From: Nitrospinae bacterium RIFCSPLOWO2_12_FULL_45_22
GTDB taxonomy: Bacteria; 2-12-FULL-45-22
Assembly (NCBI GenBank): GCA_001803565.1
Contig: MHDQ01000302.1
Coordinates: 1-33,248 of the forward strand
DNA length: 33,248 bases
Direction of reading: 5' to 3'
Shown: positions 1,407 to 21,366 of the stretch, piece by piece
How the letters are laid out: every line of letters starts with the position of its first letter
Position numbering within the stretch: position 1 is the stretch's first letter
Position numbers and translations under genes: made by a program
Notes under the pieces: model-generated
Told to the model about the DNA's origin: nothing
Database searches by the model: none
The model's input: only the letters and a program-made list of their open reading frames with translations

Positions 1407-1673
1407 ATGGTTTTATCTTTAGATCAATTAATTCTACGGGCCCGGGAACAACTCAACAAAATCACCGGCTTAAAATTGTCCACTACCCTGGGAGTCACCA
1501 GGCATAATGGTACCTGGGTTGTCTCTGTGGAGTTGGTGGAAAAACATTCCATCCCTGATGGAATGGATATCCTGGCAACTTATGAGGTCAATATGGATGA
1601 AGAGGGTACCCTTGTCGATTTTAAGCGTAAAAGGCTCCGGAAACGGATAGATACCGAGGACGCAGAGGCATAG
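1407..1673 (+). CDS. gvpO: Gas vesicle protein GvpO
   Basis: 88 aa; GVTRHNGTWVVSVELVEKHSIPDGMDILATYEVNMDEEG matches the conserved GvpO core (…GxWxVxVEVVExxxxPDxxDILxxYEVxLDxxG…); strong RBS aaggagg. Confidence 0.85.
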   Translation: MVLSLDQLILRAREQLNKITGLKLSTTLGVTRHNGTWVVSVELVEKHSIPDGMDILATYEVNMDEEGTLVDFKRKRLRKRIDTEDAEA

Positions 1674-1756
1674 CTGAATGTTTGCGCTCATAGAGAATAG
1701 TTATCTGCGTGAATCTGCGTCCTAAATATAATTTAAGAGATAAAGGAACGAGACTA

Positions 1757-2680
1757 ATGCCACATCAAGGGCCAGGCTTTTTAGAAAACCAGGAGCTGCA
1801 ATTGATACTCTTCGGGGGGAAAGGCGGGAGTGGCAAGACCACCTTTGCGGCAGCCACTGCAATATATCGAGCCCAATCCAGCAAAAATAAAAAAATACTG
1901 GCCGTATCTACTGACCCGGCCCATTCCCTGGGGGATAGTTTCGGGGTCTTCATTGGGGACGAGCTTATACCCGTCAACGGTATAGAAAATCTGTGGGGGC
2001 TAGAGATAAATGCCCCGAAATTGCTGGAAGATTTCAAACAGAGACACGAGAAGGCAATCAAGAAACTGGCTGATCGTGGCACTTACTTTGACCAACAGGA
2101 TATAGCCGATTTCTTCTCCCTCTCATTACCCGGACTGGATGAAGTTATGGCCATCATAGAGATTGCCAATATCCTTAAGAATGGACAGTATGATCTGATT
2201 ATACTGGATACGGCTCCTACCGGGCATACCATTAATCTATTGGCCCTGCCCGAACAGATGGAAAAGTGGATCAAGGTCTTCGATCTGATGCAGGAAAAGC
2301 ACCGCTATATGGGGACGCATTTCACCGGTAGGAGGTATGTCAAAGATGATGCCGATGAGTTTATTGAGATGATGACCAGGGATATCGGCAGGGTGAAAAA
2401 CCTTCTTATGGATAAAAAAATAACGGAGTTTGTCCCGGTTACTATTCCAGAACCAATGAGTATATATGAGACCGAACGGCTTTTGGCGGTTTTGAAAGAT
2501 TATAAGATTTCTGTTAAAAGTATTATTGCTAACCGAGTTATTATTGATGAGGGGGTAGATTGTCCTTCCTGTCTGTCCAGAATAAGAGAAAAGGAGAAGT
2601 ATATAAGAGAGATGGAGAGAAGTTCGCTCTTTATAATCTCCTTAAAATGCCTTTATTCCCTGCCGAAGTTAGGGGGATAG
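1757..2680 (+). CDS. ArsA/GET3-family P-loop ATPase (single-domain), copy 1
   Basis: Deviant Walker A LFGGKGGSGKTT, switch region DTAPTGHT, C-terminal CPSC pair. ORF opens at GTG 1709, but the ATG at 1757 has RBS aaagga and is the likelier start. Confidence 0.85.
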   Translation: MPHQGPGFLENQELQLILFGGKGGSGKTTFAAATAIYRAQSSKNKKILAVSTDPAHSLGDSFGVFIGDELIPVNGIENLWGLEINAPKLLEDFKQRHEKAIKKLADRGTYFDQQDIADFFSLSLPGLDEVMAIIEIANILKNGQYDLIILDTAPTGHTINLLALPEQMEKWIKVFDLMQEKHRYMGTHFTGRRYVKDDADEFIEMMTRDIGRVKNLLMDKKITEFVPVTIPEPMSIYETERLLAVLKDYKISVKSIIANRVIIDEGVDCPSCLSRIREKEKYIREMERSSLFIISLKCLYSLPKLGG

Positions 2681-2730
2681 GGACCCTAAAGAAATTTATT
2701 GAGATATTGCAAGGAAATGGGGAAACATTC

Positions 2731-3756
2731 ATGAGCCCTCGGCTCACAAAGGATGATGAAAATATGTGGGATAGGAATGTACCGCATATCGATAGGCGGG
2801 GTTTTCTAACCCCGCAAAAACCATTTTCAGGAAAAGCCCCCTTAAATCGTGAATTCATCCTTTTTGGGGGCAAAGGCGGGGTAGGCAAGACTTCCCTGGC
2901 TGCCGCTACGGCCTTATGGCTAGCCAGAGAGGAGCGTAGCAAAAAAGTCCTGGCCTTCTCTACCGACCCGCCCATAGGGGATAAGATTACCCCTATAGAA
3001 GAGGTAGACAATCTTTATGCCCTGGAGATAAATGCCGCTAAATTACTGGAGGATTTTAAAGAGGAATACAGAGATGATATAAATGAAATGTTTGATAGGT
3101 TCTTGGCCGGAGGAATAGATGTCAAGTTTGATCGGGAGGTAATGACTGAGCTTATTTCCCTTGCGCCTCCTGGGTTAGATGAGATCATGGCCCTGGATAA
3201 GATTATAGATCTCAGAGATGCCCGGGAATTTGATCTGTTTATCCTGGACTCGGCTGCTACTGGACATCTACTCCGCTTCCTGGAACTGCCTGATCTGATC
3301 CGGGATTGGTTAAAAACCCTCTTCAAGATAATATTGAAATACAAGGGGATGGTACGCCTAACCAAGGTGGCTGAAAATTTGCTAAAACAGTCCAAAAATA
3401 CAAGAAAGATACAGGAAGCGCTTACAGACCCCCTCAGGAGTGAGTTTGTGGCAATAACCATCCCTGAGGCCATGGGTGTGTTGGAGATGGAAAGACTTCT
3501 ATCAGGCCTTAGTAGACTGAAGATACCCTGCCACCATATCATTATCAATATGGTCATTCCCCCAACGGATTGTAGTTTTTGCTCCTTCAAACGGAATGAA
3601 CAACAAAAGTATGTTAAGGCAATAAGAGATAACTTTGCCCGGTATCTGGTTTCCGAAATTCCCTTATTCCCCCATGAAATAAAGGAGAGAGAAAGATTGA
3701 ACGATCTTGCCGCGATGATGTATGATCCGGTCGAGGAGGTAATAAAAAGCGCCTGA
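2731..3756 (+). CDS. ArsA/GET3-family P-loop ATPase (single-domain), copy 2, with N-terminal 'GFLTPQK' module
   Basis: LFGGKGGVGKTS Walker A, DSAATGHLLRF switch, CSFCS pair. ORF opens at TTG 2560 overlapping copy 1; the ATG at 2731 with ggggaaa RBS is preferred, and the start is uncertain by about ±85 nt. Confidence 0.8.
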   Translation: MSPRLTKDDENMWDRNVPHIDRRGFLTPQKPFSGKAPLNREFILFGGKGGVGKTSLAAATALWLAREERSKKVLAFSTDPPIGDKITPIEEVDNLYALEINAAKLLEDFKEEYRDDINEMFDRFLAGGIDVKFDREVMTELISLAPPGLDEIMALDKIIDLRDAREFDLFILDSAATGHLLRFLELPDLIRDWLKTLFKIILKYKGMVRLTKVAENLLKQSKNTRKIQEALTDPLRSEFVAITIPEAMGVLEMERLLSGLSRLKIPCHHIIINMVIPPTDCSFCSFKRNEQQKYVKAIRDNFARYLVSEIPLFPHEIKERERLNDLAAMMYDPVEEVIKSA

Positions 3757-3811
3757 AGATAGAGATGTTTATCTATTCAGTGAAATGACTATTCCGATGA
3801 GGTAAGCAAAG

Positions 3812-4180
3812 ATGGTCCTAGAAGCCAGCAGAAACTCCAGCAGTACCTTAGTAGATGTAATAGATAGGATACTGGATAAGGGATTGGTGATCAATGCCGA
3901 TATAACTGTTTCCCTGGCTGGAGTAGAGTTGCTGGGTATCAAGATAAGGGCGGCTCTGGCTTCTTTCGAGACCGCAGCTAGATATGGCTTAGAGTTTCCC
4001 TCGGGGACTAATTATGAAACCTCAGCCTGGCAAGAAGCCCGGATAGGTAAAGAGAATTGTCCGCAGTGTGATAAGAGGACGCCGGTAGAGGAGCTTATTA
4101 GCACCGGCTGCCCCTGGTGTGGATGGATAAGTGCCAAGGCCAAGACCCTGGCCCAAAAAGCCGCCCCATCAATGATGTGA
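3812..4180 (+). CDS. GvpA/GvpJ/GvpM-fold gas vesicle protein fused to a C-terminal zinc ribbon
   Basis: N-terminus [39 protein letters not shown] is the GvpA/J/M signature; C-terminus has CPQC…CPWCGW. Confidence 0.8.
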
Positions 4181-4222
4181 GGCAACTTAATTACTGGTCT
4201 GAGAGGTAAAGAAGGTGTCGAA

Positions 4223-4555
4223 ATGGTTTTAGAATTCTTTTCCATCCCAGGAGCCCTTTTAAATGAAATTGATAAATATGCCTGTCAGCAGAGGGAAAGA
4301 GAGGCCAGAAATACCTACTGGATAAGGTGTCCCAATTGCGGAAAGCAGGTAGTAAAAAGGGAATTGATCAAGAAGGGGTGTTATGTATGCAACTGGCAGG
4401 GGACTGAAGATAAAATTAAACCGGCCAATCAAGAAACCAGGGATAGGCCAAATCCTTATAAGACAAATTGTCCCCGCTGCGGAGCCCGGGTGATAACCGA
4501 CCAACTACAAGAAAATGGGTGTTATCTCTGTGGATGGAAAGCTCCAAAGGATTAG
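4223..4555 (+). CDS. Double zinc-ribbon protein
   Basis: 110 aa; CPNCG…CYVCNW and CPRCG…CYLCGW, two ribbon units. Confidence 0.65.
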   Translation: MVLEFFSIPGALLNEIDKYACQQREREARNTYWIRCPNCGKQVVKRELIKKGCYVCNWQGTEDKIKPANQETRDRPNPYKTNCPRCGARVITDQLQENGCYLCGWKAPKD

Positions 4556-4558
4556 AAG

Positions 4559-4630
4559 GATAAATCCAAAGTTCAAAATCCAGATGCCAAAATATTTGAG
4601 CTTTGACATTTGGGCTTTTATTTTTAAGGA
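4559..4630 (+). promoter_or_regulatory. Conserved ~70-nt upstream element, copy A (precedes the Hsp20/gvpH-like gene)
   Basis: Near-identical to 5482..5553 (about 4 mismatches over ~72 nt); contains TTGACA at 4603..4608 and a T-rich tract. Confidence 0.7.
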
Positions 4631-4638
4631 TTAGAAGG

Positions 4639-5148
4639 ATGGATGAGATGGATAGAGAAGAAGGAGAAAAAGAGATAAAAAAATCTGAAGAAGACGAGGA
4701 TCGGGAGCCTGAAGGGATAGCCGGTAATGTGCTTAAGGGATTAGGTGATATTATTCCTGGGCTGGGTGGCTTGATCAAGGGCTTGAAGAAATCGGCGGCC
4801 TTCCAGGATAGGTTGAAAGTGATAGATGCGGAGGTTGAGGCCAGGTTAAAGGGGAAAGGATTGACTGAAAAGGAAGGAGAAATCTACCGATCAAGACCGA
4901 CGGTTGCAACCCCTAAGGAGGTTCCAGTAGAGCTCTTTGATGAAGGAGATTATTGGAGGGTAATCGCGGAATTGCCCGGGATAGAAGAAAAGGATATTAA
5001 GGTTGATCTGGAGGGTGCCAGGGTATTCATATCTGTCAATAGCTCCCAGCGTAAATATCACCGGGAAATCAACCTGGCTTGTACCCCTAAAGGCGATCTC
5101 AAAAAAGTTTATAAAAATGGGATACTAGAGATCACTATAGAAAAATAA
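4639..5148 (+). CDS. gvpH: Hsp20/alpha-crystallin-family protein (GvpH-like)
   Basis: ACD motifs WRVIAELPGIEEKDIKVDL … YKNGILEITIEK; start chosen at MDEMDREEG with RBS agaagg (ORF 4603 begins inside the repeat). Confidence 0.8.
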   Translation: MDEMDREEGEKEIKKSEEDEDREPEGIAGNVLKGLGDIIPGLGGLIKGLKKSAAFQDRLKVIDAEVEARLKGKGLTEKEGEIYRSRPTVATPKEVPVELFDEGDYWRVIAELPGIEEKDIKVDLEGARVFISVNSSQRKYHREINLACTPKGDLKKVYKNGILEITIEK

Positions 5149-5156
5149 CGAAGATT

Positions 5157-5480
5157 ATGCCTATTGATATTGATCAGGATAATTTGCGACATGGGGTCTT
5201 AGGTCTAGTTCTAGCCCTGGTGGAGATAATCAGAGATGCGTTGAGGCTCCAGGCCTTCAGACGCATGGAGGGAGGCAGCTTGACCGAGAAAGAGATTGAA
5301 CGATTAGGAGAGGCCTTGTTGGACCTGGATACCGCCATTGACCAGATCAAAGAAGAGCAAGGGATTACTGAGGCGGTTCAGGGTGTGAGAGATGGCCTGG
5401 ACAGCATTGTAGATGAAGTTATAGACCAGTTTGTTAACCCAGAACGGTGGGAAGAAAAAGCCAGAGAAAAGCGGGCTTGA
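5157..5480 (+). CDS. gvpK: Gas vesicle protein GvpK
   Basis: HGVLGLVLALVEIIRDALRLQAFRRMEGGSLTEKEIERLGEAL closely matches the conserved GvpK core. Confidence 0.9.
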   Translation: MPIDIDQDNLRHGVLGLVLALVEIIRDALRLQAFRRMEGGSLTEKEIERLGEALLDLDTAIDQIKEEQGITEAVQGVRDGLDSIVDEVIDQFVNPERWEEKAREKRA

Positions 5481-5481
5481 T

Positions 5482-5553
5482 GATAAATCCAAAGTTCAAA
5501 ATCCAAATGCCAAAATATTTGAGCTTTGACATGTGGGGTTTTTATTTTTAAAG
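5482..5553 (+). promoter_or_regulatory. Conserved ~70-nt upstream element, copy B (precedes the second gvpF/L)
   Basis: Near-identical to 4559..4630. Confidence 0.7.
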
Positions 5554-5567
5554 AAGGGATATTCAGA

Positions 5568-6773
5568 ATGGAGAGGGAAGTATCGCCGCTAAAGGTGTTA
5601 ATAGAGAGAATAATCAAAGATGAGATAGAGGATATGGCTGGGGAGATCAAGTCCCTGGTAAAGCAAACTGTCAAGAGCAGTTTTGTCTCAAAAATTAGAG
5701 AATCAGTGAGAAATGCTATATCAGAGACAATAGAAGAAATATTGCCAGAGACTGGGAAGCCCGGAATTATAACTTGCAGCAATGAAACTCAGTGGGATAA
5801 AGATTTTCCCCATCCATCCTATGAATTGGTACCCGGCGATAGGCAGGGTTTTCTAACCCCGCAAAAAGAATTTGTAACCGTTCACCCACACATTGCCCAC
5901 GATGTCATTCTGAGCGAAAGCGAAGAATCTCTTTCGCCGGAGACCCTTCGCCCCGCTCAGGGTGACAGTCCCAGTGAACGGTTACAAGAATTTAATACCG
6001 GGGATGGCAATAATAGCGGGAGATATATCTATTGTATTGTGGAGAGTAATGATCGGTTAAGCCTTGGCCGGATCGGTATAGGAGGTAATGAGGTGTATAC
6101 TATCCCCTATAAAGACCTGGCTGCCCTAGTCCACAATTGCTCCACCGAACCTTACGCTTCAGAAGATAGTGAAATAGTCAAGGGATGGGTAATGACGCAT
6201 CAAGAAGTCTTGGAAAGGACAGCTCAGAGATTTAGTACCGTGATACCTTTAGGCTTTGACACTATTATCAAAGCTGTAAACGGTCAAACCCCTGAGCAAA
6301 ACCTGATAGAGTGGCTAAAAGGAGATTATGAGAATCTCAAGGTAAAGGTAGCGAGGCTGAAAGGAAAGGAGGAGTATGGGGTACAGATCCTTTGGAACCC
6401 CAAAATTATCGGGCAAAAAATTGCCCAGATCACCCCTGAAATTAAGAAATTAGATGAGGATATAAAATCGAAGCCCAGAGGAATGGCCTATATGTATAAA
6501 CAGAAGCTAGAAGATGCCTTAAAAACTGAGCTAGAAAAGGCGGCTGATCGTTATTTTAAGGAATTTTATGAACAGATTAAGCCCTGGGCAGATGATCTGC
6601 GGGTAGAAAAGACCAAGAAGGCCGAGGAGGGCAAGCATATGCTCATGAATCTCTCCTGCCTGGTGGATAAGGAAAAATATAAAAAGTTGGGTGAAGAACT
6701 GGAGAGGATTAACAATATGGATGGTTTTTTTGTACGCTTTACCGGCCCCTGGCCACCCTATAGCTTTGTCTAG
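5568..6773 (+). CDS. gvpL: GvpF/GvpL-family protein with ~150-aa N-terminal extension carrying the 'GFLTPQK' module
   Basis: C-terminal ~250 aa paralogous to feature 1 (RYIYCIVE…EVYTIPY…). N-terminal extension has WDKDFPH…GDRQGFLTPQKEF. Start taken at MEREVSPLK with RBS aagaaggg. Confidence 0.8.
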   Translation: MEREVSPLKVLIERIIKDEIEDMAGEIKSLVKQTVKSSFVSKIRESVRNAISETIEEILPETGKPGIITCSNETQWDKDFPHPSYELVPGDRQGFLTPQKEFVTVHPHIAHDVILSESEESLSPETLRPAQGDSPSERLQEFNTGDGNNSGRYIYCIVESNDRLSLGRIGIGGNEVYTIPYKDLAALVHNCSTEPYASEDSEIVKGWVMTHQEVLERTAQRFSTVIPLGFDTIIKAVNGQTPEQNLIEWLKGDYENLKVKVARLKGKEEYGVQILWNPKIIGQKIAQITPEIKKLDEDIKSKPRGMAYMYKQKLEDALKTELEKAADRYFKEFYEQIKPWADDLRVEKTKKAEEGKHMLMNLSCLVDKEKYKKLGEELERINNMDGFFVRFTGPWPPYSFV

Positions 6774-6775
6774 AA

Positions 6776-7033
6776 ATGGAACCAACCAGAAATACCCATG
6801 CAACTTTAGTAGATTTATTGGACCGCATCCTGGATAAGGGGCTGGTGATACATGCCGATATTATCGTATCAGTGGCAGGAATACCCTTAATCGGGGTTAA
6901 TTTGCGGGCTGCCCTGGCAGGAATGGAAACGATGCTAAGATACGGTGTACTGCAGGCCTGGGATGAAGGCACCAGGGCCTGGGAACGGAGACAGAGAATG
7001 AAAGGAGAAATGGGAGTTTCTTCAGCAGTTTAG
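6776..7033 (+). CDS. GvpJ/GvpM-type small gas vesicle protein
   Basis: [47 protein letters not shown]; start 3 nt after the gvpL stop (coupled). Confidence 0.85.
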   Translation: MEPTRNTHATLVDLLDRILDKGLVIHADIIVSVAGIPLIGVNLRAALAGMETMLRYGVLQAWDEGTRAWERRQRMKGEMGVSSAV

Positions 7034-7063
7034 CCAAATTAGGCTCATAAAACCATAAAGAGA

Positions 7064-7130
7064 GGTTGTAGTGGCAGAGCTTGCTCTGCTTGGGTGCTTA
7101 TCGGGATGTCGAGCAAGCTCGACCACTACA
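7064..7130. repeat. REP-like palindromic element: two inverted copies of a 23-nt unit (TTGTAGTGG + GAGCwwGCTC hairpin) flanking a 21-nt spacer
   Basis: 7064..7086 ttgtagtggcagagcttgctctg and 7108..7130 tcgagcaagctcgaccactacaa (reverse-complement orientation). The differences between arms are compensatory within each internal hairpin. Confidence 0.65.
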
Positions 7131-7139
7131 AAAGGAAAC

Positions 7140-8984
7140 ATGGGTAGAGTAGTAGGGATTGACTTAGGGACTACTAATTCAGTAGTAGCCATTATGGAGA
7201 GGGGAAAGCCTAAGGTTATACCTAATGCTGACGGTAACCCCTTGACTCCATCAGTGGTAGCCTTTACCCCGGATTGGAGACCTCTGGTAGGTCAGTTAGC
7301 TAAGAAACAGGCAACGGTAAATCCCGAAAAAGCCCTCTTTTCTATCAATAAAAGGATGGAGAGAAGTTCCTATGGGGAGAGGAATAATCCTGCTAGTTTT
7401 AACCAGATTATTACTTCTATCAAGAGACGGATGGGCTCTAACTATATAGTAAAGATTGATAACAGGGAATATACCCCCCAGGAGATCTCCAGCATGATCT
7501 TGCAAAAAATAAAGAGGGATGCAGAAGACTATCTGGGCGAAAAAATAGGGAAGGCCGTGATTACTGTGCCTGCTTATTTTAATGATAGCCAGCGCAAGGC
7601 TACTAAAGATGCTGCTACTATTGCTGATCTGGAAGTCATCAGGATTATTAATGAACCAACCGCAGCAGCCCTGGCTTATGGCTTAGACAAAGAAGATATT
7701 CATACCATTTTGGTTTGGGACCTTGGGGGTGGTACCTTTGATGTCTCTATTTTGGAATTAGGAGATGGCTTCTTTGAGGTTAAGGCAGTAAATGGCGATA
7801 CCCACCTGGGTGGGGATGACTATGACCAGCGAATTGTTAATTATTTAGCCGATGTTTGTCAAAAAGAGCAAGATATTGACCTCCGGCAAGATAGGATTAC
7901 CCTTCAGATACTGAAAGAAGTAGCCGAAAAGGCCAAGATTGAGCTCTCCTATGCCCTAACTACCAATATAAGTTTATCTTTGATTTACCAAGATGGTCTT
8001 AAGAACCCGGATATTATCCTGAGGAGGGAAGAGTTTAATGAGCTAACCGAGGATTTAAGAGAGCGAATGATACGACCAACGCAACAGGCCCTGGTTGATG
8101 CCAGGCTTTCTCCTGAGGATATTGATAGGGTGATCCTGGTAGGTGGGGCCACCAGGATGCCAGCGATACAGGAATTGGCTAAGACGCTCCTGGGCAAAGA
8201 GCCCTATAACCATATTGATCCAGACAAGATTGTAGCGCTGGGGGCCGCTATTCAGGCCGGTATTTTAACGGGGGAAGTTAGGAAAGTGACCTTGATAGAT
8301 GTTAATCCTTTATCTTTAGGCATCGAGACTATGGGCGGAGTATTTACCAGGATCATTGAAAGAAATACACCTATTCCTACCTCTCAAAGCCGGGTCTTTA
8401 CTACTGCTCGGGACAATCAAACAGAAGTAGATATCCATGTCTTCCAAGGAGAGCGGGCGATGGTCAGACATAATATGCCCCTGGACAGGTTCCGCCTTAC
8501 CGGTATCGAACCTCAACCCCGAGGCGAAGCCCGCATCGAGGTAATTTTTGATATTGATGTCAATAGTATTGTCCAGGTGTCAGCTATAGACCTTCAGACG
8601 GATAACCAGCAAAAGATAGAGATTAACTCGTTTGGGAGCCTGCTGGAAGAAGGGATAGACCAGATGGTTGAAGAAGCCAGGATATATGCTGAGCAAGATA
8701 GGAGAGAGCGAGAAAAAATAGAGGCAAGTATCCGGGCTAATAGTATGATTTGTGCGGCTGAGCACATGATTAAAGAGGTGGAGGAAAAAATTAGTAACTC
8801 CCTCCGGGAAGGGGTAATCGAGATTGAACAAGCTATACTCCTGGTTAAAGAGGCCCTGGCCAGTAGTAATTACCAGGAAGTAAAATCCCGAACACAAGAA
8901 TTAGAAAGGCTTATTCAGGCCAGGGAGAGAGAAAGGAGGAATAAAAAAAAGGAGATAAAGGAAGAGGAGGCGGTACTAACTTGA
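7140..8984 (+). CDS. dnaK: Hsp70 chaperone DnaK (divergent, stand-alone; no grpE/dnaJ adjacent)
   Basis: [45 protein letters not shown], substrate-binding domain and helical lid present. ORF opens at GTG 7071 but the conserved N-terminus begins at ATG 7140. Confidence 0.9.
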
Positions 8985-9004
8985 TATACAGAGCGACATA
9001 ATTA

Positions 9005-9100
9005 TTTGCGCATACCAACATTGCCTGTCATTCCGGGCTTGACCCGGAATCCAGCATCTTTTCTGGATTCCGGCTTTCGCCGGAATGACGACTTATGCGT
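9005..9100. repeat. Structured palindromic element (tandem hairpins attccggg-N5-cccggaat / attccgg-N6-ccggaat with outer 10-bp inverted repeat gtcattccgg/ccggaatgac and imperfect 15-bp flanking inverted repeats)
   Basis: Read directly from 9027..9089; mutually exclusive alternative pairings are possible. Confidence 0.55.
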
Positions 9101-9232
9101 ATTTAATTTGGACGCTGTGTATAGTATAGGAATTTTCATTTTAATAATGCGGTTTTTCACTCCTCGCAACGACAGTATGTATTGAAATGTTAATTTGGCA
9201 ACGATGTACTAGAGACCCAGGAGGATAAGGCA

Positions 9233-9541
9233 ATGGATTTTCTAGGAAGGAGCAAATGGGAGACGTTAGAGGAAAAAATAGTAGATATTGTTGATGGGAA
9301 GAGACGGGTGCTGGTCATTGCTGAGATGCCCGGTGTATCCGAGGAGGAGATCAATATAGATATTGCCGGTGATGTCCTTTTGCTTCTGGCTTCCCATAAG
9401 GATAAGAAGTATTCCAATGAGATATTCCTACCAGCCAGAGTAAAAAGAGAAACTATGAAATATATCTATAAAAACGGCCTCTTAGAGATCACTATAGACA
9501 AAGAACTAGCTCGGAAACCAGGTCAATTAAATTATATTTAG
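9233..9541 (+). CDS. Hsp20-family small protein, paralogue of the GvpH-like protein
   Basis: VLVIAEMPGVSEEEINIDI … YKNGLLEITIDK, C-terminus nearly identical to 4639..5148; RBS aggagg. Confidence 0.75.
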   Translation: MDFLGRSKWETLEEKIVDIVDGKRRVLVIAEMPGVSEEEINIDIAGDVLLLLASHKDKKYSNEIFLPARVKRETMKYIYKNGLLEITIDKELARKPGQLNYI

Positions 9542-9587
9542 GACGCAGATTTCCGCAGACATTTTAGTGAGGAGTAAGCAGTGAGCC

Positions 9588-9620: not shown

Positions 9621-9754
9621 TTTACAAAATCTGTGTTCATCTGTGTCCAAAATGAAAATCCCTATACTATCAACCTGGACTACTTTCTCCCCCCGCTAGA
9701 TAACAAGCGCCTGGCAGGGTGGGGAAAAAATATCCCGGGGGCGATGCAAGGCTT

Positions 9755-12778: not shown

Positions 12779-13391
12779 CCCCCTCCCTTTTTAACTATAT
12801 CACCGCTGAGAACGCGGAGATAAGACATAAAAGTGAGCTAAAAGTGCAAAACGCAAAGTGTAAAGCTAAGTGCTCTAATCCATAATTACGGTGATGTATT
12901 TGAGAGAAAGTGCTTATGATAAGGAAACCAGGAATACAGGAGAGGTTAACCCCGCTTAGGCGGGGTTAATTTCCTGGCCTCTTGGCTTCCTAATAAAAAA
13001 GAAGGCAAAAAATAGGCATAATACGTAACTGTATTTATGAAATGAAGCACTAAGGAATAATTCCTTAATTTTGCGCTTTTCGCTTTAATCTTTACCTTTT
13101 GTCTCTGTTTTCTCTGCCTGCTCTGCGGTGAATAGTTATAAGCCCCCCTCTTCTTCAAAAAAATCCCTTGCGGATAAGGCAATACCACAGTATTATTATT
13201 GGTGCCATAGCAGAAGAATTTCGTAACTGTTTAGCCACGAAATGACACGAAGGAGAAAGTAGTTGCAGAGCCTTACTCTGCTAAAATGGCAGCGTAAGAC
13301 GCTGCTGCTACCTAGCTTAGCGTCCTTAGTGGCTGAATAGTTACCAAGACTTTAGTTGGTTAAACAGTTAGAGGATTTATCGGTTACAAAG
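12779..13391 (+). promoter_or_regulatory. Long (~600 nt) structured non-coding region: 3' region of the radical SAM gene plus a probable long 5' leader of rne
   Basis: Multiple stable hairpins (12948..12971 ttaaccccgc-ttag-gcggggttaa; gcagagccttactctgc; cagcgtaagacgctg); no credible ORF. Confidence 0.4.
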
Positions 13392-15092
13392 ATGATTAAG
13401 AAGATGCTTATTAATGCCTCTGAGCCAGAAGAGAGCCGGGTAGCGATTATAGAAGATGGTTTATTACAGGAGCTGGATACTGAGGTAGCTACCCGGGAAC
13501 AGATCAGAGGTAATATCTATAAAGGGATTATAACTCATATTCAGCCGGGTCTCCAGGCTGCATTTGTGGATTATGGAGGGAATAAGGCCGGGTTTTTACC
13601 TATGGGCGAGATCCATCCCCAGTTCTATCTTCCGGGGACTACTGCTGATAATGTAGGCCGGCGACCACGGATTCAGGAGCTTATTAAAGAGGGCCAGGAG
13701 ATTCTACTACAAGTAGTTAAGGCAGAGATGGGGAGTAAAGGAGCGGCTTTAACTACTTATGTCTCTCTGCCTGGGAGATACCTGGTACTAATGCCGGGGA
13801 GTGATACCAGTGGTATTTCCCGAAAGATTGAGGATGAAGCCCAGCGTACCAGGTTGCGGGAAATCATGCAGCAACTGAATCCCCCACCCGATATAGGGTT
13901 TATTGTCCGGACGGCTGGATTGGATCGCGCTAAGAATGAACTCTCCCGGGACTTTCATTACCTTTATCGCCTCTGGCAAAATATCTGGGCTGAGTACCAG
14001 AAACAATCTGCCCCATCCCTCATCTATCAAGAAAGGGACTTAATTACCCGGACTATCCGGGACTATTTTACCCCGGATATCCAGGAAATATTGGTAGATA
14101 ACCCAGAGGTTTATAGGCAGGTAAAGAATTTTTTACAGTTGATGATGCCGCGGTACCAAAAGAAGGTTAAGTTATATCACGAAAAACGGCCTCTATTTTC
14201 CAAATATAACCTGGAGGAGCAGATAGAGAGTATTTATCAGCGTAAGGTTCTGTTAAAATCTGGCGGGTCTATAGTTATTGATGTGACCGAAGCCCTGGTG
14301 GCTATTGATGTAAACTCTGGCCGCTACCGACCCCAGAAAGGGATAGAAGAAACGGCCTATAGGACTAACTTAGAGGCCGCTAAAGAGATTGCTCACCAGT
14401 TACGTCTCAGAGATTTAGGGGGTATTATAGTGGTAGACTTTATTGATATGAAGGACCGGGGCCATATGTTAGAAGTAGAGAGAGTATTCAGGCAGGCCGT
14501 AAAACGGGACAAGGCCCGCATCCATGTTTCTAGAATATCCAAATTTGGTCTGTTAGAACTGTCTAGACAACGGCTAAAGACCGGCATCCGAGAAATCAAT
14601 TATTCCCCTTGTAGCCAGTGCAATGGTCTAGGGGTGATAAGAACGCCGGAAGCAGCGGCCTTATCTATTCTCCGGAAAATAAAGGCTAAGGCAGTAAAAG
14701 GGGACCTTATGACCATTAAAGGGGTGCTCAGTACCGACGTGGCTTTTTATCTCCTCAATCAAAAACGGGAAGAGCTCTCTTCCTTAGAAGAGGAGTATGA
14801 CTTGCAAATCCATTTGTCAGGAGACCCTGGGGTCTCAACTCATGAGGTCAGGCTGGAATTTATTAAGCGACCTACCCCCGAAGCAGAAGTACCCTTGTTT
14901 TCCACTGAAAGAGGAGAGACTCCGGAGAGATTCACCCCTGCAGTTGAGTCAGTGCCTTCTGAAGCCCATCTTACTTCATTATCTTCCCCAGAAGAAAGAC
15001 AAGGAGAGACAATTAGTCAAGAAGATGTCACTAAAGAAGAAACCAGAGGCCCTTTGAACCGGCTTTGGTTCTGGCGGGTAAAAAAGGCATGA
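13392..15092 (+). CDS. rng: Ribonuclease E/G family (Rne/Rng)
   Basis: S1 domain GNIYKGIITHIQPGLQAAFVDYG, RNase E/G catalytic domain, Zn-link CSQCNGLG; start ambiguous (TTG 13356 / ATG 13392 / ATG 13404). Confidence 0.85.
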   Translation: MIKKMLINASEPEESRVAIIEDGLLQELDTEVATREQIRGNIYKGIITHIQPGLQAAFVDYGGNKAGFLPMGEIHPQFYLPGTTADNVGRRPRIQELIKEGQEILLQVVKAEMGSKGAALTTYVSLPGRYLVLMPGSDTSGISRKIEDEAQRTRLREIMQQLNPPPDIGFIVRTAGLDRAKNELSRDFHYLYRLWQNIWAEYQKQSAPSLIYQERDLITRTIRDYFTPDIQEILVDNPEVYRQVKNFLQLMMPRYQKKVKLYHEKRPLFSKYNLEEQIESIYQRKVLLKSGGSIVIDVTEALVAIDVNSGRYRPQKGIEETAYRTNLEAAKEIAHQLRLRDLGGIIVVDFIDMKDRGHMLEVERVFRQAVKRDKARIHVSRISKFGLLELSRQRLKTGIREINYSPCSQCNGLGVIRTPEAAALSILRKIKAKAVKGDLMTIKGVLSTDVAFYLLNQKREELSSLEEEYDLQIHLSGDPGVSTHEVRLEFIKRPTPEAEVPLFSTERGETPERFTPAVESVPSEAHLTSLSSPEERQGETISQEDVTKEETRGPLNRLWFWRVKKA

Positions 15093-15160
15093 CCATTTAC
15101 TGCTTACTGCCGTACCCAGGAGGTATGTGCGGTGCCAGCCAGTGCTGCCACTACGGCCTA

Positions 15161-15195
15161 CAATCGGATTTGTAGTGGTCGAGCTTGCTCGATCC
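15161..15195. repeat. REP-like element: hairpin ctacaa-tcggat-ttgtag followed by a copy of the 23-nt unit TTGTAGTGGtcgagcttgctcga
   Basis: Identical over 23 nt to the arms at 7064..7130; lies between convergent rne and tsaD. Confidence 0.6.
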
Positions 15196-15204
15196 TAAAG
15201 CAAA

Positions 15205-16227
15205 CTAGGCTAGAGGGAGGTCTGCTACGGCATCTAGTTCTAAATAAGCAGGCGGAGAGGGGGCTGGTATTCCTTCAAGGCCAAATAGATAATAAGCTGC
15301 ACAGGCAATCATGGCGCCATTGTCAGTACAGAGGTAAGGGCTGGGATAATAGACGCGAACATTTGCCTCCTGGCCCTGAGTGATAAATTCTTTCCGCAAT
15401 AGGCTATTACAGGCAACTCCTCCTACTAATATTATCCTATTACTCCCTGTCTGCCGGGCTGCCTCAAAGGTCTTTGCTACCAATACATCTACGACAGCTT
15501 GTTGGAAACTGGCCGCCACATGAGGGATTATCTCCTGTCCAACAGGCGGACCCTTCTTTTTAAGATAGACCGCTACCGCAGTCTTTAGGCCACTAAAGCT
15601 AAAATCCAGGGACCCTTTATTAAGATAGGGCCGGGGGAAAGGTATAGCCTGAGGGTCTCCTTCCCTGGCGCATTTATCTATAATGGGACCACCTGGATAA
15701 CCCAGGGCCAACATTTTCGCTACTTTGTCAAAGGCCTCTCCGGCAGCATCATCCAACGTGGTGCCTAACTGGCAGAAATCACCATGCCCCCTTATCTGGT
15801 ATAGTTCTGTATGTCCGCCGGAGACAACCAGGGCCAGTAGAGGAAAGGATAGTTCCGGGTATTCCAGAAAGACCGAGTAGATATGACCAGCAAGATGATT
15901 TATGCCTACCAGGGGTTTCTTATGGGCATAGGCAATGGCCTTGGCAGTAGATAGGCCAACCAACAGGGCCCCAATGAGCCCCGGCCCGCGAGTAACGGCT
16001 ATCAAGTCTATTTCTGCCAGGGATATTTCGGCGGCTGACAAGGCCTGGTCAATAACCGGGATGATATTTTCTATATGTTTCCGGCAGGCTAATTCTGGCA
16101 CAACACCGCCATATTTGCTATGCACTTCCAACTGGGAAGCAACTATATTAGATAGTATTTGCCTACCGTCTTTTATTACTGCCGCAGCCGTCTCATCACA
16201 AGAAGTCTCTATCCCTAAAATAAGCAT
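15205..16227 (-). CDS. tsaD: tRNA N6-adenosine threonylcarbamoyltransferase TsaD (Kae1/YgjD)
   Basis: MLILGIETSCDETAAAVI… and conserved His/Asp metal site regions. Confidence 0.9.
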   Translation of the reverse strand: MLILGIETSCDETAAAVIKDGRQILSNIVASQLEVHSKYGGVVPELACRKHIENIIPVIDQALSAAEISLAEIDLIAVTRGPGLIGALLVGLSTAKAIAYAHKKPLVGINHLAGHIYSVFLEYPELSFPLLALVVSGGHTELYQIRGHGDFCQLGTTLDDAAGEAFDKVAKMLALGYPGGPIIDKCAREGDPQAIPFPRPYLNKGSLDFSFSGLKTAVAVYLKKKGPPVGQEIIPHVAASFQQAVVDVLVAKTFEAARQTGSNRIILVGGVACNSLLRKEFITQGQEANVRVYYPSPYLCTDNGAMIACAAYYLFGLEGIPAPSPPAYLELDAVADLPLA

Positions 16228-20206: not shown

Positions 20207-21184
20207 ATGCACCAGCCGATAAGAATCCTGAAAGAAAACCGTATCGGGCAGGTATTGCAACCACCCCTTATCCCTTGCCAGCGGAACATACCAGCGGTCA
20301 ATATCGCCCGTGGATGCAGCTTTTCCTGCGTCTATTGCTATGCCCGGGGGTATAGTAATGCGCCAAGAAAGGATGAGGTATATGTTTATTCTAACCTGGC
20401 AGAAAAACTGATTCAGGAATTAGAAAACCCTCGCCGGCGTAAACCCTGGCCCCGCTATGTATCCCTAAATACCTCCACGGATTCCTTCCAGCCCTATGAA
20501 GAGGTACTAGCTATTTCCTGGCAGGTAATGCAACTTCTTCTGCAACGTAATATTGGGATATCTTTGCTTACTAAAGGAGAGATCCCGCCAGAGTTTATCA
20601 CGTTATTCCAGCGATCCAAAGAGCGGGTAGCAGTAGCTATCGGCCTGGTATCTCTGAGCGAGGCATTTAAGACCAGGTACGAACCTGGAGCTGCCTCCAT
20701 AAACGATCGGTTAGATACCATAGCCCGCTTAACCAGAGCGGGGATAAATGTCCGGGTACGACTGGACCCATTAATACCCGGTATAAATGATACCCCAGCC
20801 GAGATAAGGGATTTGTTCCAGGAATTGAGCTGCCGCGGTGTAAACACTGTGTCAGTAAGCTATCTAATGATGCGCCCCGGGATCATGGGGCAAATAAAAA
20901 GAGAATTACCCGCGGTTCATTACAAGCTTTTAGAGGGGTATTTCCAATACCGCCCCCGGAGCTTTATTGCTGCTTCGCAAAATACCCAACTTATCTCCCC
21001 GGTATTGCGGTTAAGAAGATATGAGGAAATAAAGGCCCTGGCCGCGGAACATCAGTTAAAGGTCTTGATCTGTTCCTGTAAGAACCCTGGATTAGCAGCC
21101 GACCTCTGTAGCCAACCGGAGCAAGAATTCTTATCTGCTACCCGACCCTCTAATAATACCCGGCAACTATCCCTCTTTAAATAG
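20207..21184 (+). CDS. Radical SAM protein, spore-photoproduct-lyase-like (SplB/COG1533 family)
   Basis: CSFSCVYC radical SAM motif near the N-terminus; architecture similar to DNA-repair radical SAM lyases. Confidence 0.6.
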   Translation: MHQPIRILKENRIGQVLQPPLIPCQRNIPAVNIARGCSFSCVYCYARGYSNAPRKDEVYVYSNLAEKLIQELENPRRRKPWPRYVSLNTSTDSFQPYEEVLAISWQVMQLLLQRNIGISLLTKGEIPPEFITLFQRSKERVAVAIGLVSLSEAFKTRYEPGAASINDRLDTIARLTRAGINVRVRLDPLIPGINDTPAEIRDLFQELSCRGVNTVSVSYLMMRPGIMGQIKRELPAVHYKLLEGYFQYRPRSFIAASQNTQLISPVLRLRRYEEIKALAAEHQLKVLICSCKNPGLAADLCSQPEQEFLSATRPSNNTRQLSLFK

Positions 21185-21366
21185 TAAATAATTTGTAGTG
21201 GGTTGAAAAAGGAGACACAAATTATACAAATGGGGGAAAATTTGAATCGAGGGAGACAATAGAGTGAAAAAAGACCGGATAAGAAATGTCATTGGAGAAA
21301 GGTTAAAAAATAAATATTAAGCCATGCTCGCAGGCTATAGGCAAAAATATGTTCAGGAATAAAAAC

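Follow-up and report, generated by a model that had tools for sequence, protein, structure and literature searches.

The hairpins that lie immediately upstream of dnaK and between the convergent genes rne and tsaD in a 33,248-nt stretch of a Nitrospinae metagenome-assembled genome (MAG), called the window below and always meaning the whole stretch analysed, are very probably copies of a family of GTAG-tagged repetitive extragenic palindromes (REPs), present once as an inverted doublet of the kind known as a REPIN (REP doublet forming a hairpin) and once as a singlet. The family is new, and the kind of element to which it belongs is already known. The element is very unlikely to be a dedicated regulator of dnaK or of rne/tsaD. 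A REP-like palindromic family had been proposed in an earlier, sequence-only reading of this DNA, and the GTAG head plus hairpin, the inverted doublets, the extragenic placement and the many members in other MAGs described here all support that proposal. The unit measures 24 nt and consists of TTGTAGTG followed by G-NN-GAGC-TT-GCTC-NN-C, that is, an unpaired GTAG head and then a hairpin of 6-7 bp with a fixed central TT. The following features were found in the window:

7066..7089, plus strand: REP unit of the 'CAG' type, with the unpaired head TTGTAGTG and the hairpin GCAGAGC-TT-GCTCTGC (from pattern matches, with boundaries from the logo of 118 copies).
7090..7107, no strand: doublet spacer of 18 nt, ttgggtgcttatcgggat, which becomes the loop if the two arms pair into a single long hairpin.
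7108..7131, minus strand: inverted REP unit of the 'TCG' type, reading TTGTAGTG-GTCGAGC-TT-GCTCGAC on the minus strand (from pattern matches and complementarity to 15169-15192).
7066..7131, no strand: the whole heterotypic REP doublet, heads outward (REPIN-like), 66 nt, ending 8 nt before the dnaK ATG.
15170..15193, plus strand: single REP unit of the 'TCG' type, with T as the closing base where C is usual, folding as a hairpin with the head unpaired.
15136..15163, minus strand: possible decayed partner, GTAGTGG plus CAGC-ACTG-GCTG (15136-15154), of uncertain membership.
21193..21201, plus strand: isolated head TTGTAGTGG, intergenic after a radical-SAM gene.

Units at the dnaK and rne/tsaD junctions

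Reading the window directly, we found TTGTAGTGGCAGAGCTTGCTCTG at 7066-7088 on the plus strand, its inverted partner TCGAGCAAGCTCGACCACTACAA at 7109-7131, and TTGTAGTGGTCGAGCTTGCTCGA at 15170-15192 on the plus strand. The inverted pair at dnaK and the rne/tsaD copy reported earlier are therefore present as sequences, at coordinates that had to be shifted by 1-4 nt, and the small hairpin CTACAA-tcggat-TTGTAG said to precede the rne/tsaD copy was found at 15158-15175. At the fourth reported site, the 10-mer TTTGTAGTGG is indeed present at 21192-21201, right after the end of the radical-SAM open reading frame (ORF) at 21184, as a head only: no hairpin follows the head at 21193, where the predicted structure amounts to 0 kcal/mol. 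This isolated head may be a relic or a chance match, which for a head standing alone look the same. All copies in the window are intergenic. The 9-mer head occurs four times in the window against 0.17 expected, a count of 4 being reached in 0/100 shuffles, and the 21-nt degenerate unit occurs three times against 0.03 expected.

The copies at 7109-7132 and 15169-15192 are complementary at 24/24 positions, and the two arm types differ as CA..TG versus TC..GA. These differences are compensatory inside the hairpin, as had been noticed from the copies of the window, and the wider family covaries as well. When folded as single-stranded DNA, 7066..7089 gave a 6-bp stem with a CTTG loop and left the head unpaired. 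Next to the singlet, a second head remnant, CCTACAA, lies on the plus strand at 15157-15163 and, together with the decayed partner, faces the 15170 unit head-to-head; in the predicted RNA fold, CCACUAC of the decayed partner pairs with the head of the 15170 unit. The decayed partner could be a chance match, its stem being only 4 bp.

Unit structure and stem covariation

A logo built from 118 non-redundant copies defined the unit as 24 nt, T-TGTAGTG-[G NN GAGC TT GCTC NN C], with A/T-rich, non-specific flanks. Among 63 distinct units, TGTAG was invariant (63/63), and the 7-bp stem was 98% paired against at most 46% in slid controls, a percentage that is inflated because the units were pre-filtered for pairing and the search pattern fixes the inner stem. 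Changes on both sides were seen at 6 of the 7 stem pairs. The double-change cells numbered 104 versus 31 in shuffles, the observed value being reached in 0/500 of them, and the covariation score was 0.654 versus 0.235 in shuffles. G-T pairs were found in a minority of stems. The fair evidence for covariation is given by the unconstrained columns 10/23 and 11/22, together with the units found by their head alone, which show compensated stems such as CAGAGTTTACTCTG, CAAAGCTTGCTTTG, CAAAGTTTACTTTG, TCGAGTTTACTCGA and TCAAGCTCGCTTGA, among others. The doublet of the window folds as one hairpin (DNA fold, z = -3.9). Selection for structure, as suggested earlier, agrees with the covariation of the stems. 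The best explanation for it is that a REP-associated tyrosine transposase (RAYT) recognises the hairpin in folded single-stranded DNA, and not that the hairpin serves as a gene-specific RNA switch.

Distribution of the family in other genomes

Scanning the pattern TTGTAGTGGNNGAGCWWGCTC over one genome per bacterial species gave at least 110 loci, against a calculated chance expectation of about 17 matches in the ~1.2e12 positions searched. Among the 117 matches listed, the NN..NN positions were complementary in 106, which the pattern did not require and which has a chance of 1 in 16, and the stem-closing C followed in 111; nearly all of these matches are therefore true members. The matches listed come from 37 MAGs, 18 of them with at least two copies, and three single hits are due to chance. 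Besides the MAG of the window, at least 34 MAGs carry the unit; they represent a dozen or more phylum-level groups, with up to 36 and 10 copies per MAG among the matches listed. Their labels include Brocadiales/Planctomycetes, WOR-3, Desantisbacteria, Elusimicrobia, Stahlbacteria, Ratteibacteria, Firestonebacteria, Zixibacteria, Bacillota, Ignavibacteria/Chlorobiota, Deltaproteobacteria and others, the window itself being labelled Nitrospinae. No protein family was common to the flanks of the 110 loci, where the protein clusters were generic (TPR, response regulators, XerD, ABC transporters). Viral contigs gave 2 matches, both of them chance matches that lack a complementary stem and lie in a homologous coding region, and no vector was identified among them.

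Doublets are nearly always heterotypic, combining a TCG/CCG arm with a CAG/CAA arm (for example TCGAGC with CAGAGC), heads outward, and their spacers vary in length and sequence between loci, typically from ~7 to 35 nt. Singlets, head-to-head pairs, tail-to-tail pairs, tandems and clusters occur too. Since the doublet is small and its termini are perfect 9-nt inverted repeats, it could be regarded as a miniature inverted-repeat transposable element (MITE) of a DDE-transposase insertion sequence (IS), mobilised in trans, with the terminal inverted repeats TTGTAGTGG...CCACTACAA; the doublet of the MAG Yes70-08 even lies within an element of ~140 nt that has longer outer inverted repeats and dozens of copies. 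We consider this explanation very unlikely. In 41 doublets, direct repeats of at least 3 nt equalled the shuffled control at all offsets, so that an excess of target-site duplications was found at none of them. Single arms are common and keep the full head plus hairpin, arms are also arranged head-to-head, tail-to-tail and in tandem, and no DDE transposase recurs in the flanks. Moreover, in its head the unit bears the GTAG tag that is characteristic of RAYT substrates, and sister REPs were found on the flanks of RAYT genes.

The arrangement in 'bacterium Yes70-08' deserves a description of its own. The REP doublet is nested there in the ~140-nt element between the outer inverted repeats GGCCTTGTTCATCGTTTSGGCCA ... 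TGGCCGAAACGATGAACAAGGCC, and dozens of copies lie on high-coverage, often short contigs (L003, L004, L011, L013, L016, L021, L046 and others). It is thus a composite MITE with a REPIN at its core. The doublet also forms the end of a second, larger repeat of this MAG (left flank ...CAGTCTGTCGGAGAGAAAATCTATCTGTGCGCAATT). MAGs that hold the present family carry further REP families with GTAG heads, such as GTAGGGGCGACCCGCCGGGTCGCCCCTAC, GTAGCGTCCGATCTCCGTATCGGACGC and GTAGGGGCTCAAAATTTTGAGCCCCTAC (L020, L057, L075, L094, L014:3140-3170 and others), and therefore several REP families coexist per genome.

With regard to genes, 79 of 104 units lay outside long open frames, though such frames cover 86% of bases, and the units favour positions downstream of genes, between co-directional or convergent genes. 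Such positions would also be expected of a structural element selected by the host, with the transposase link secondary or lost, which might serve as a stabiliser or processing barrier of mRNA 3' ends, as an aid to Rho-dependent or bidirectional termination, or as a site for nucleoid proteins or gyrase. REPs have been reported in such positions and credited with such roles (PMC3733652). The G-T pairs in a minority of stems are compatible with RNA folding, and the rne/tsaD unit is placed where two transcripts converge. However, a generic stabiliser needs no strict unpaired 8-nt head, no orientation-specific TT loop and no paired arm types, all of which would be expected if a protein recognised single-stranded DNA. 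Independent host selection can also hardly account for the same 24-mer across phyla, and in-frame copies in coding genes of Desantisbacteria resemble insertions, not regulatory sites. Host selection as the primary explanation is thus unlikely, and a host-selected structural role is compatible with a GTAG-tagged REP/REPIN family as a secondary effect.

The in-frame copies were found in Desantisbacteria CG1_02_38_46. Family units lie in-frame in a TrpE ORF (L034:1009-1056; ORF 344-1903) and in a TrpG ORF (L034:2433-2458; ORF 1900-2544), and a HypD-like ORF (3874-5082) holds in-frame repeats at L018:4803-4905. The set of in-gene copies includes a related GTAGTGG-CACGATTCATCGCAC tandem of 4 copies. 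Peptides such as SRASSTTTSSGRVYSA and (IHRTCSG)x4 are added in this way to ordinary biosynthetic genes.

Association with REP-associated tyrosine transposases

Using an E. coli RAYT sequence as the query, we picked two ORFs among the loci. Both match the NCBIfam model NF047646 'REP-associated tyrosine transposase' (E = 3.5e-20 and 1.8e-15), below its curated cut-off because of inserts, and both match Pfam Y1_Tnp. The first RAYT (L106, Elusimicrobia, 2844-3389) is followed by an array of four family units at 3414-3529, one of which is an exact TTGTAGTGG-CAGAGCTTGCTCTG-C copy, and is preceded by GTAGCGG-headed REPs. The second (L124, 57-566) has GTAGGGG-CAGAGCTTGCTCTG-CCCCTAC on either side and also in-frame within the gene, a REP whose hairpin is that of the CAG unit in the window and whose head differs by one base.

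A comparison of 80 metagenomic loci encoding relatives of these two RAYTs showed that in nearly all of them GTAG-headed hairpins flank the gene, with one in-frame between the HUH and Tyr motifs; the L106-like clade is mostly without inserts. Single-foot REPs composed of TGTAGTTG or TGTAGCGG plus a hairpin, with the same architecture and two arm types, flank the RAYTs most closely related to that of L106 (L117/L118, and L208-L211 from Elusimicrobia), and one of L208-L211 comes from a MAG that also holds the exact family of the window.

Some of these transposase genes carry REPs within themselves. RAYTs of L116-L195 (for example L124:347-372, L160:4244 and L169:4265; proteins P0129-P0248) contain their own REP copy or doublet in-frame between HUH and Tyr, which is translated into peptides such as VGAELALP...GRASSAPT and VGAGLALP...GAASSAPT, and the hairpin matches that of the REPs flanking the gene. 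A hybrid probe carrying the peptides VVAELAL and RASSATT, which correspond to an in-frame exact GTAGTGG unit, found no RAYT of this kind among its top 120 hits; the relatives it returned carry GTAGGGG versions (VGAELAL, RASSAPT).

By analogy with known REP/RAYT systems, the unit would fold in single-stranded DNA such as the lagging-strand template, and a RAYT/TnpA-REP enzyme (HUH/Y1) encoded elsewhere in the genome would bind the hairpin together with the GTAG 'foot'. The RAYT would then cut and rejoin the strand, which would spread copies into extragenic DNA without target-site duplications, and the two arm types (TCGAGC and CAGAGC) would represent the paired unit types of REP dimers and of bacterial interspersed mosaic elements (BIMEs). 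An effect on neighbouring genes, if any, would be a by-product: if transcribed, the hairpin could protect the 3' end of the upstream gvpA-like mRNA or modestly affect the initiation of dnaK translation. Passive roles may also be proposed, namely as a hairpin beside the ribosome-binding site and as a barrier to convergent transcripts at rne/tsaD.

Several points weigh against assigning the hairpins to a mobile GTAG-tagged REP family. REP copy number per genome is typically 100 or more, and for the source genome the number comes from the 33-kb window, in which three units are known, the fourth site being a bare head. No RAYT gene was found in this window, and among the RAYT loci none had the exact TTGTAGTGG version on both flanks, the most similar heads being GTAGGGG, TGTAGCGG and TGTAGTTG. 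The units used for covariation had been pre-filtered (at least 5/6 pairs), many of them found by a pattern that fixes the inner stem. Mis-binning of MAGs could inflate the phylum count. Finally, neither an empty site nor an insertion polymorphism was seen, all readable conspecific contigs carrying the elements at both junctions. For the source genome, a cognate RAYT, a high copy number and mobility of the elements are therefore putative.

As one REP family is common to MAGs of at least a dozen phyla, REPs and RAYTs may travel horizontally together and re-amplify in each host, an idea that we put forward tentatively and with some doubt. If the MAGs reflect true genomic residence and not binning errors, horizontal spread would contradict the picture of vertically inherited, lineage-specific, 'domesticated' REPIN/RAYT systems, and the cross-phylum identity offers a clean test case for such spread. 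The family, with its consensus, arm types and doublet architecture, also adds a well-defined GTAG-REP family for candidate phyla in which REPs and RAYTs have hardly been described.

Regulatory reading of the dnaK doublet

The doublet sits in a 106-nt gap at a co-directional junction, between a gvpA-like gene (6776-7033) and dnaK. The true start of dnaK is the ATG at 7140; the listed ORF starts at a GTG at 7071, which falls within the element, and some gene callers start dnaK at this in-repeat GTG, giving 637 aa versus 614 aa. The exact 614-aa DnaK has no database record because gene callers took the upstream GTG. A homologue search with this DnaK led to a cluster of 99% identity, one member of which is OGW12728.1 from 'Nitrospinae bacterium RIFCSPLOWO2_12_FULL_45_22', the MAG to which the window belongs.

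From its position, the doublet had been suggested to act as an attenuator or thermosensor; dnaK would then have a cis-regulatory RNA of its own in its 5' leader, and the other copies would be similar regulators or coincidences. The doublet indeed ends 8 nt upstream of the dnaK ATG and abuts the AAGGA ribosome-binding site, and many genes nearby encode chaperones, Hsp20 and DnaK among them. As RNA it is very stable: in the fold of 7034-7165, the whole doublet 7066-7131 forms one long hairpin (-42.6 kcal/mol, z = -3.7). However, in both the minimum free energy (MFE) and the centroid RNA folds the AAGGA Shine-Dalgarno sequence (7132-7136) remains free and the AUG forms at most weak pairs, with a partner outside the element, so the suspected sequestration of the dnaK ribosome-binding site and start codon is not predicted. 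Known RNA thermometers have weak, meltable stems, unlike the doublet, which is a long continuous hairpin of 9-bp and 10-bp helices.

No intrinsic terminator (hairpin plus T-tract) was found at 6700-7400, nor an attenuator-like alternative in the dnaK leader, and the sole match of the terminator scan at 14900-15400 lies off the element, at 15048-15060 on the minus strand. With no T-tract terminators at the hairpins, the earlier view that they are not canonical intrinsic terminators holds. A sigma-70-like promoter was found at neither junction. Rfam gave 0 matches over the whole window at gathering thresholds, and a permissive scan of 6950-7250 returned noise (E > 1); no tRNA or tmRNA was found. 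The CIRCE (controlling inverted repeat of chaperone expression) consensus is the inverted repeat TTAGCACTC-N9-GAGTGCTAA, and this CIRCE/HrcA operator gave 0 window matches at up to 3 mismatches. The identical unit also stands at a convergent 3' junction of the window itself, and at least 34 other MAGs carry it beside unrelated genes.

Retention of the doublet in all readable conspecific contigs might also be taken to favour a role at dnaK. It is kept in place in 4/4 readable conspecific metagenome contigs, with one substitution (GAGCAAGCTC to GAGCAAACTC, in the 7108-7131 arm), and the rne/tsaD unit is unchanged in 10/10 conspecific contigs. This retention is uninformative on conservation, because the contigs are ~99% identical throughout, and an informative orthologous empty site is absent because the next DnaK relative is only 64% identical. 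A fifth conspecific scaffold has a 100-N gap exactly over the dnaK REP doublet (L112:5862-5961), as expected where a multi-copy repeat breaks the assembly; the gap hints at multi-copy status, and such breaks matter for MAG quality.

Given the gene-independent distribution, the free ribosome-binding site and the lack of a terminator, a CIRCE operator or an Rfam match in the dnaK leader, a dedicated thermosensor or attenuator at dnaK is very unlikely. This tempting regulatory story should thus be removed from the annotation of the contig, and the start of dnaK corrected to the ATG at 7140.

Comparison with known systems

The closest known system is that of the GTAG REPs and REPINs with their RAYT (Nunvar 2010, PMC2817692; PMC3116915; PMC3733652; PMC6006769). 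GTAG-tagged REPs have an unpaired GTAG end, stems of 6-9 bp, very short 'TY' loops, subfamilies with complementary stems and 'HH' and 'TT' dimers; they lie between unidirectional or convergent genes, with occasional in-gene copies, and flank RAYT genes (Di Nocera 2013, PMC3733652). The inverted doublet, or REPIN, is the replicative unit (Bertels & Rainey 2011, PMC3116915). TnpA-REP processes folded single-stranded REPs in vitro and requires a conserved DNA motif before the palindrome, GTAG being the motif analysed for other REPtrons (Corneloup, PMC8266576).

The window family shows every anatomical feature of the GTAG REPs of Di Nocera, in whose terms the dnaK doublet is an 'HH dimer'. It shares with them a unit of 20-40 nt, the unpaired GTAG head, a 6-9 bp stem, a very short T-rich loop and complementary-stem subfamilies; inverted doublets that fold as long hairpins, besides singlets and clusters; and an extragenic placement at unidirectional and convergent junctions without target duplications, with sister REPs that flank RAYTs (REPtrons) in related loci. 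It differs in that it was found in a Nitrospinae MAG and other candidate phyla and not in Proteobacteria, in that the same 24-mer occurs across many phyla whereas known systems are usually described as lineage-specific and vertically inherited, and in that the search for a RAYT gave none with the exact head on both flanks. A full-text literature search for the sequence words returned only unrelated primer and short hairpin RNA papers, and GTAGTGG is absent from the main text of the GTAG-REP survey (PMC3733652).

RAYTs of subclass 2.4 are associated with 'double-foot' REPs of the form GT[AG]G ... C[TC]AC with a GGG/CCC stem base, carry in-frame REP copies inside the RAYT gene and have a patchy distribution suggestive of horizontal gene transfer (Quentin 2018, PMC6006769). 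The L116-L195 RAYT loci match this description. GTAGGGG-CAGAGCTTGCTCTG-CCCCTAC of L124 shares the CAG hairpin of the window, and the taxonomy is similarly patchy, whereas the units of the window are single-foot, with the head GTAGTGG, and head complementarity arises only in doublets.

The E. coli BIMEs, with alternating Y and Z units, likewise consist of two unit types in opposite orientation with short spacers, and mosaic clusters also occur in the present family (L022, L051, L101); the stems of the window family differ in being short and fully paired and in lacking the bulge that characterises E. coli REPs, and the sequence is different. The in-frame TrpE, TrpG and HypD-like copies of Desantisbacteria resemble Rickettsia palindromic elements (RPEs) and the in-gene REPs of Di Nocera, but the copies of the window are all intergenic, and RPEs are longer (about 100-150 bp) with a different terminal tag. 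Palindrome-associated transposable elements (PATEs) derived from IS200/IS605 are similar in that HUH/Y1 enzymes recognise single-stranded DNA hairpins and leave no target duplications. They are, however, larger and keep asymmetric left and right IS ends, in contrast to the 24-nt head plus hairpin seen here, and the enzymes linked here match the RAYT model NF047646 and not the IS200 TnpA.

Neighbouring genes and other repeats

The singlet lies between the RNase E/G gene rne/rng (13356-15092) and the convergent tsaD (15205-16227). A gas-vesicle gene cluster extends over 1407-9541 and encodes GvpO, an ArsA-like ATPase, two GvpA-like proteins, GvpK and GvpL/F, with dnaK at its end. Two Hsp20-family genes also belong to this cluster, which is thus a chaperone-rich gvp cluster in a Nitrospinae MAG.

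Other repeats were noticed in and around this cluster. A 33-nt inverted repeat at 1704-1736 and 9527-9559 (94% complementary; TCTGCGTGAATCTGCGTCCTAAATATAATTTAA) brackets most of the gvp-dnaK-hsp20 cluster, and the similar ATCTGTGTTCATCTGTGTCC lies at 9629-9648; the inverted repeat may delimit a cassette or serve as a shared regulatory site. At 4559-4625 and 5482-5548, the two copies of a 67-nt direct repeat (93% identical) are located just upstream of, or overlapping, the starts of an Hsp20-like ORF (4603-5148) and the GvpL/F ORF (5526-6773), so that a promoter or leader may have been duplicated here. Two ORFs, the ArsA-like (2560-3756) and the GvpL/F ORF, contain a 37-nt repeat (92% identical; hairpin GCGGGGTTTTCTAACCCCGC) at 2790-2826 and 5837-5873, which may represent a further small palindromic element or a segment common to the two proteins. 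The small Hsp20 gene (9233-9541) lies between the arms of a 22-nt inverted repeat (95% complementary) at 9121-9142 and 9649-9670.

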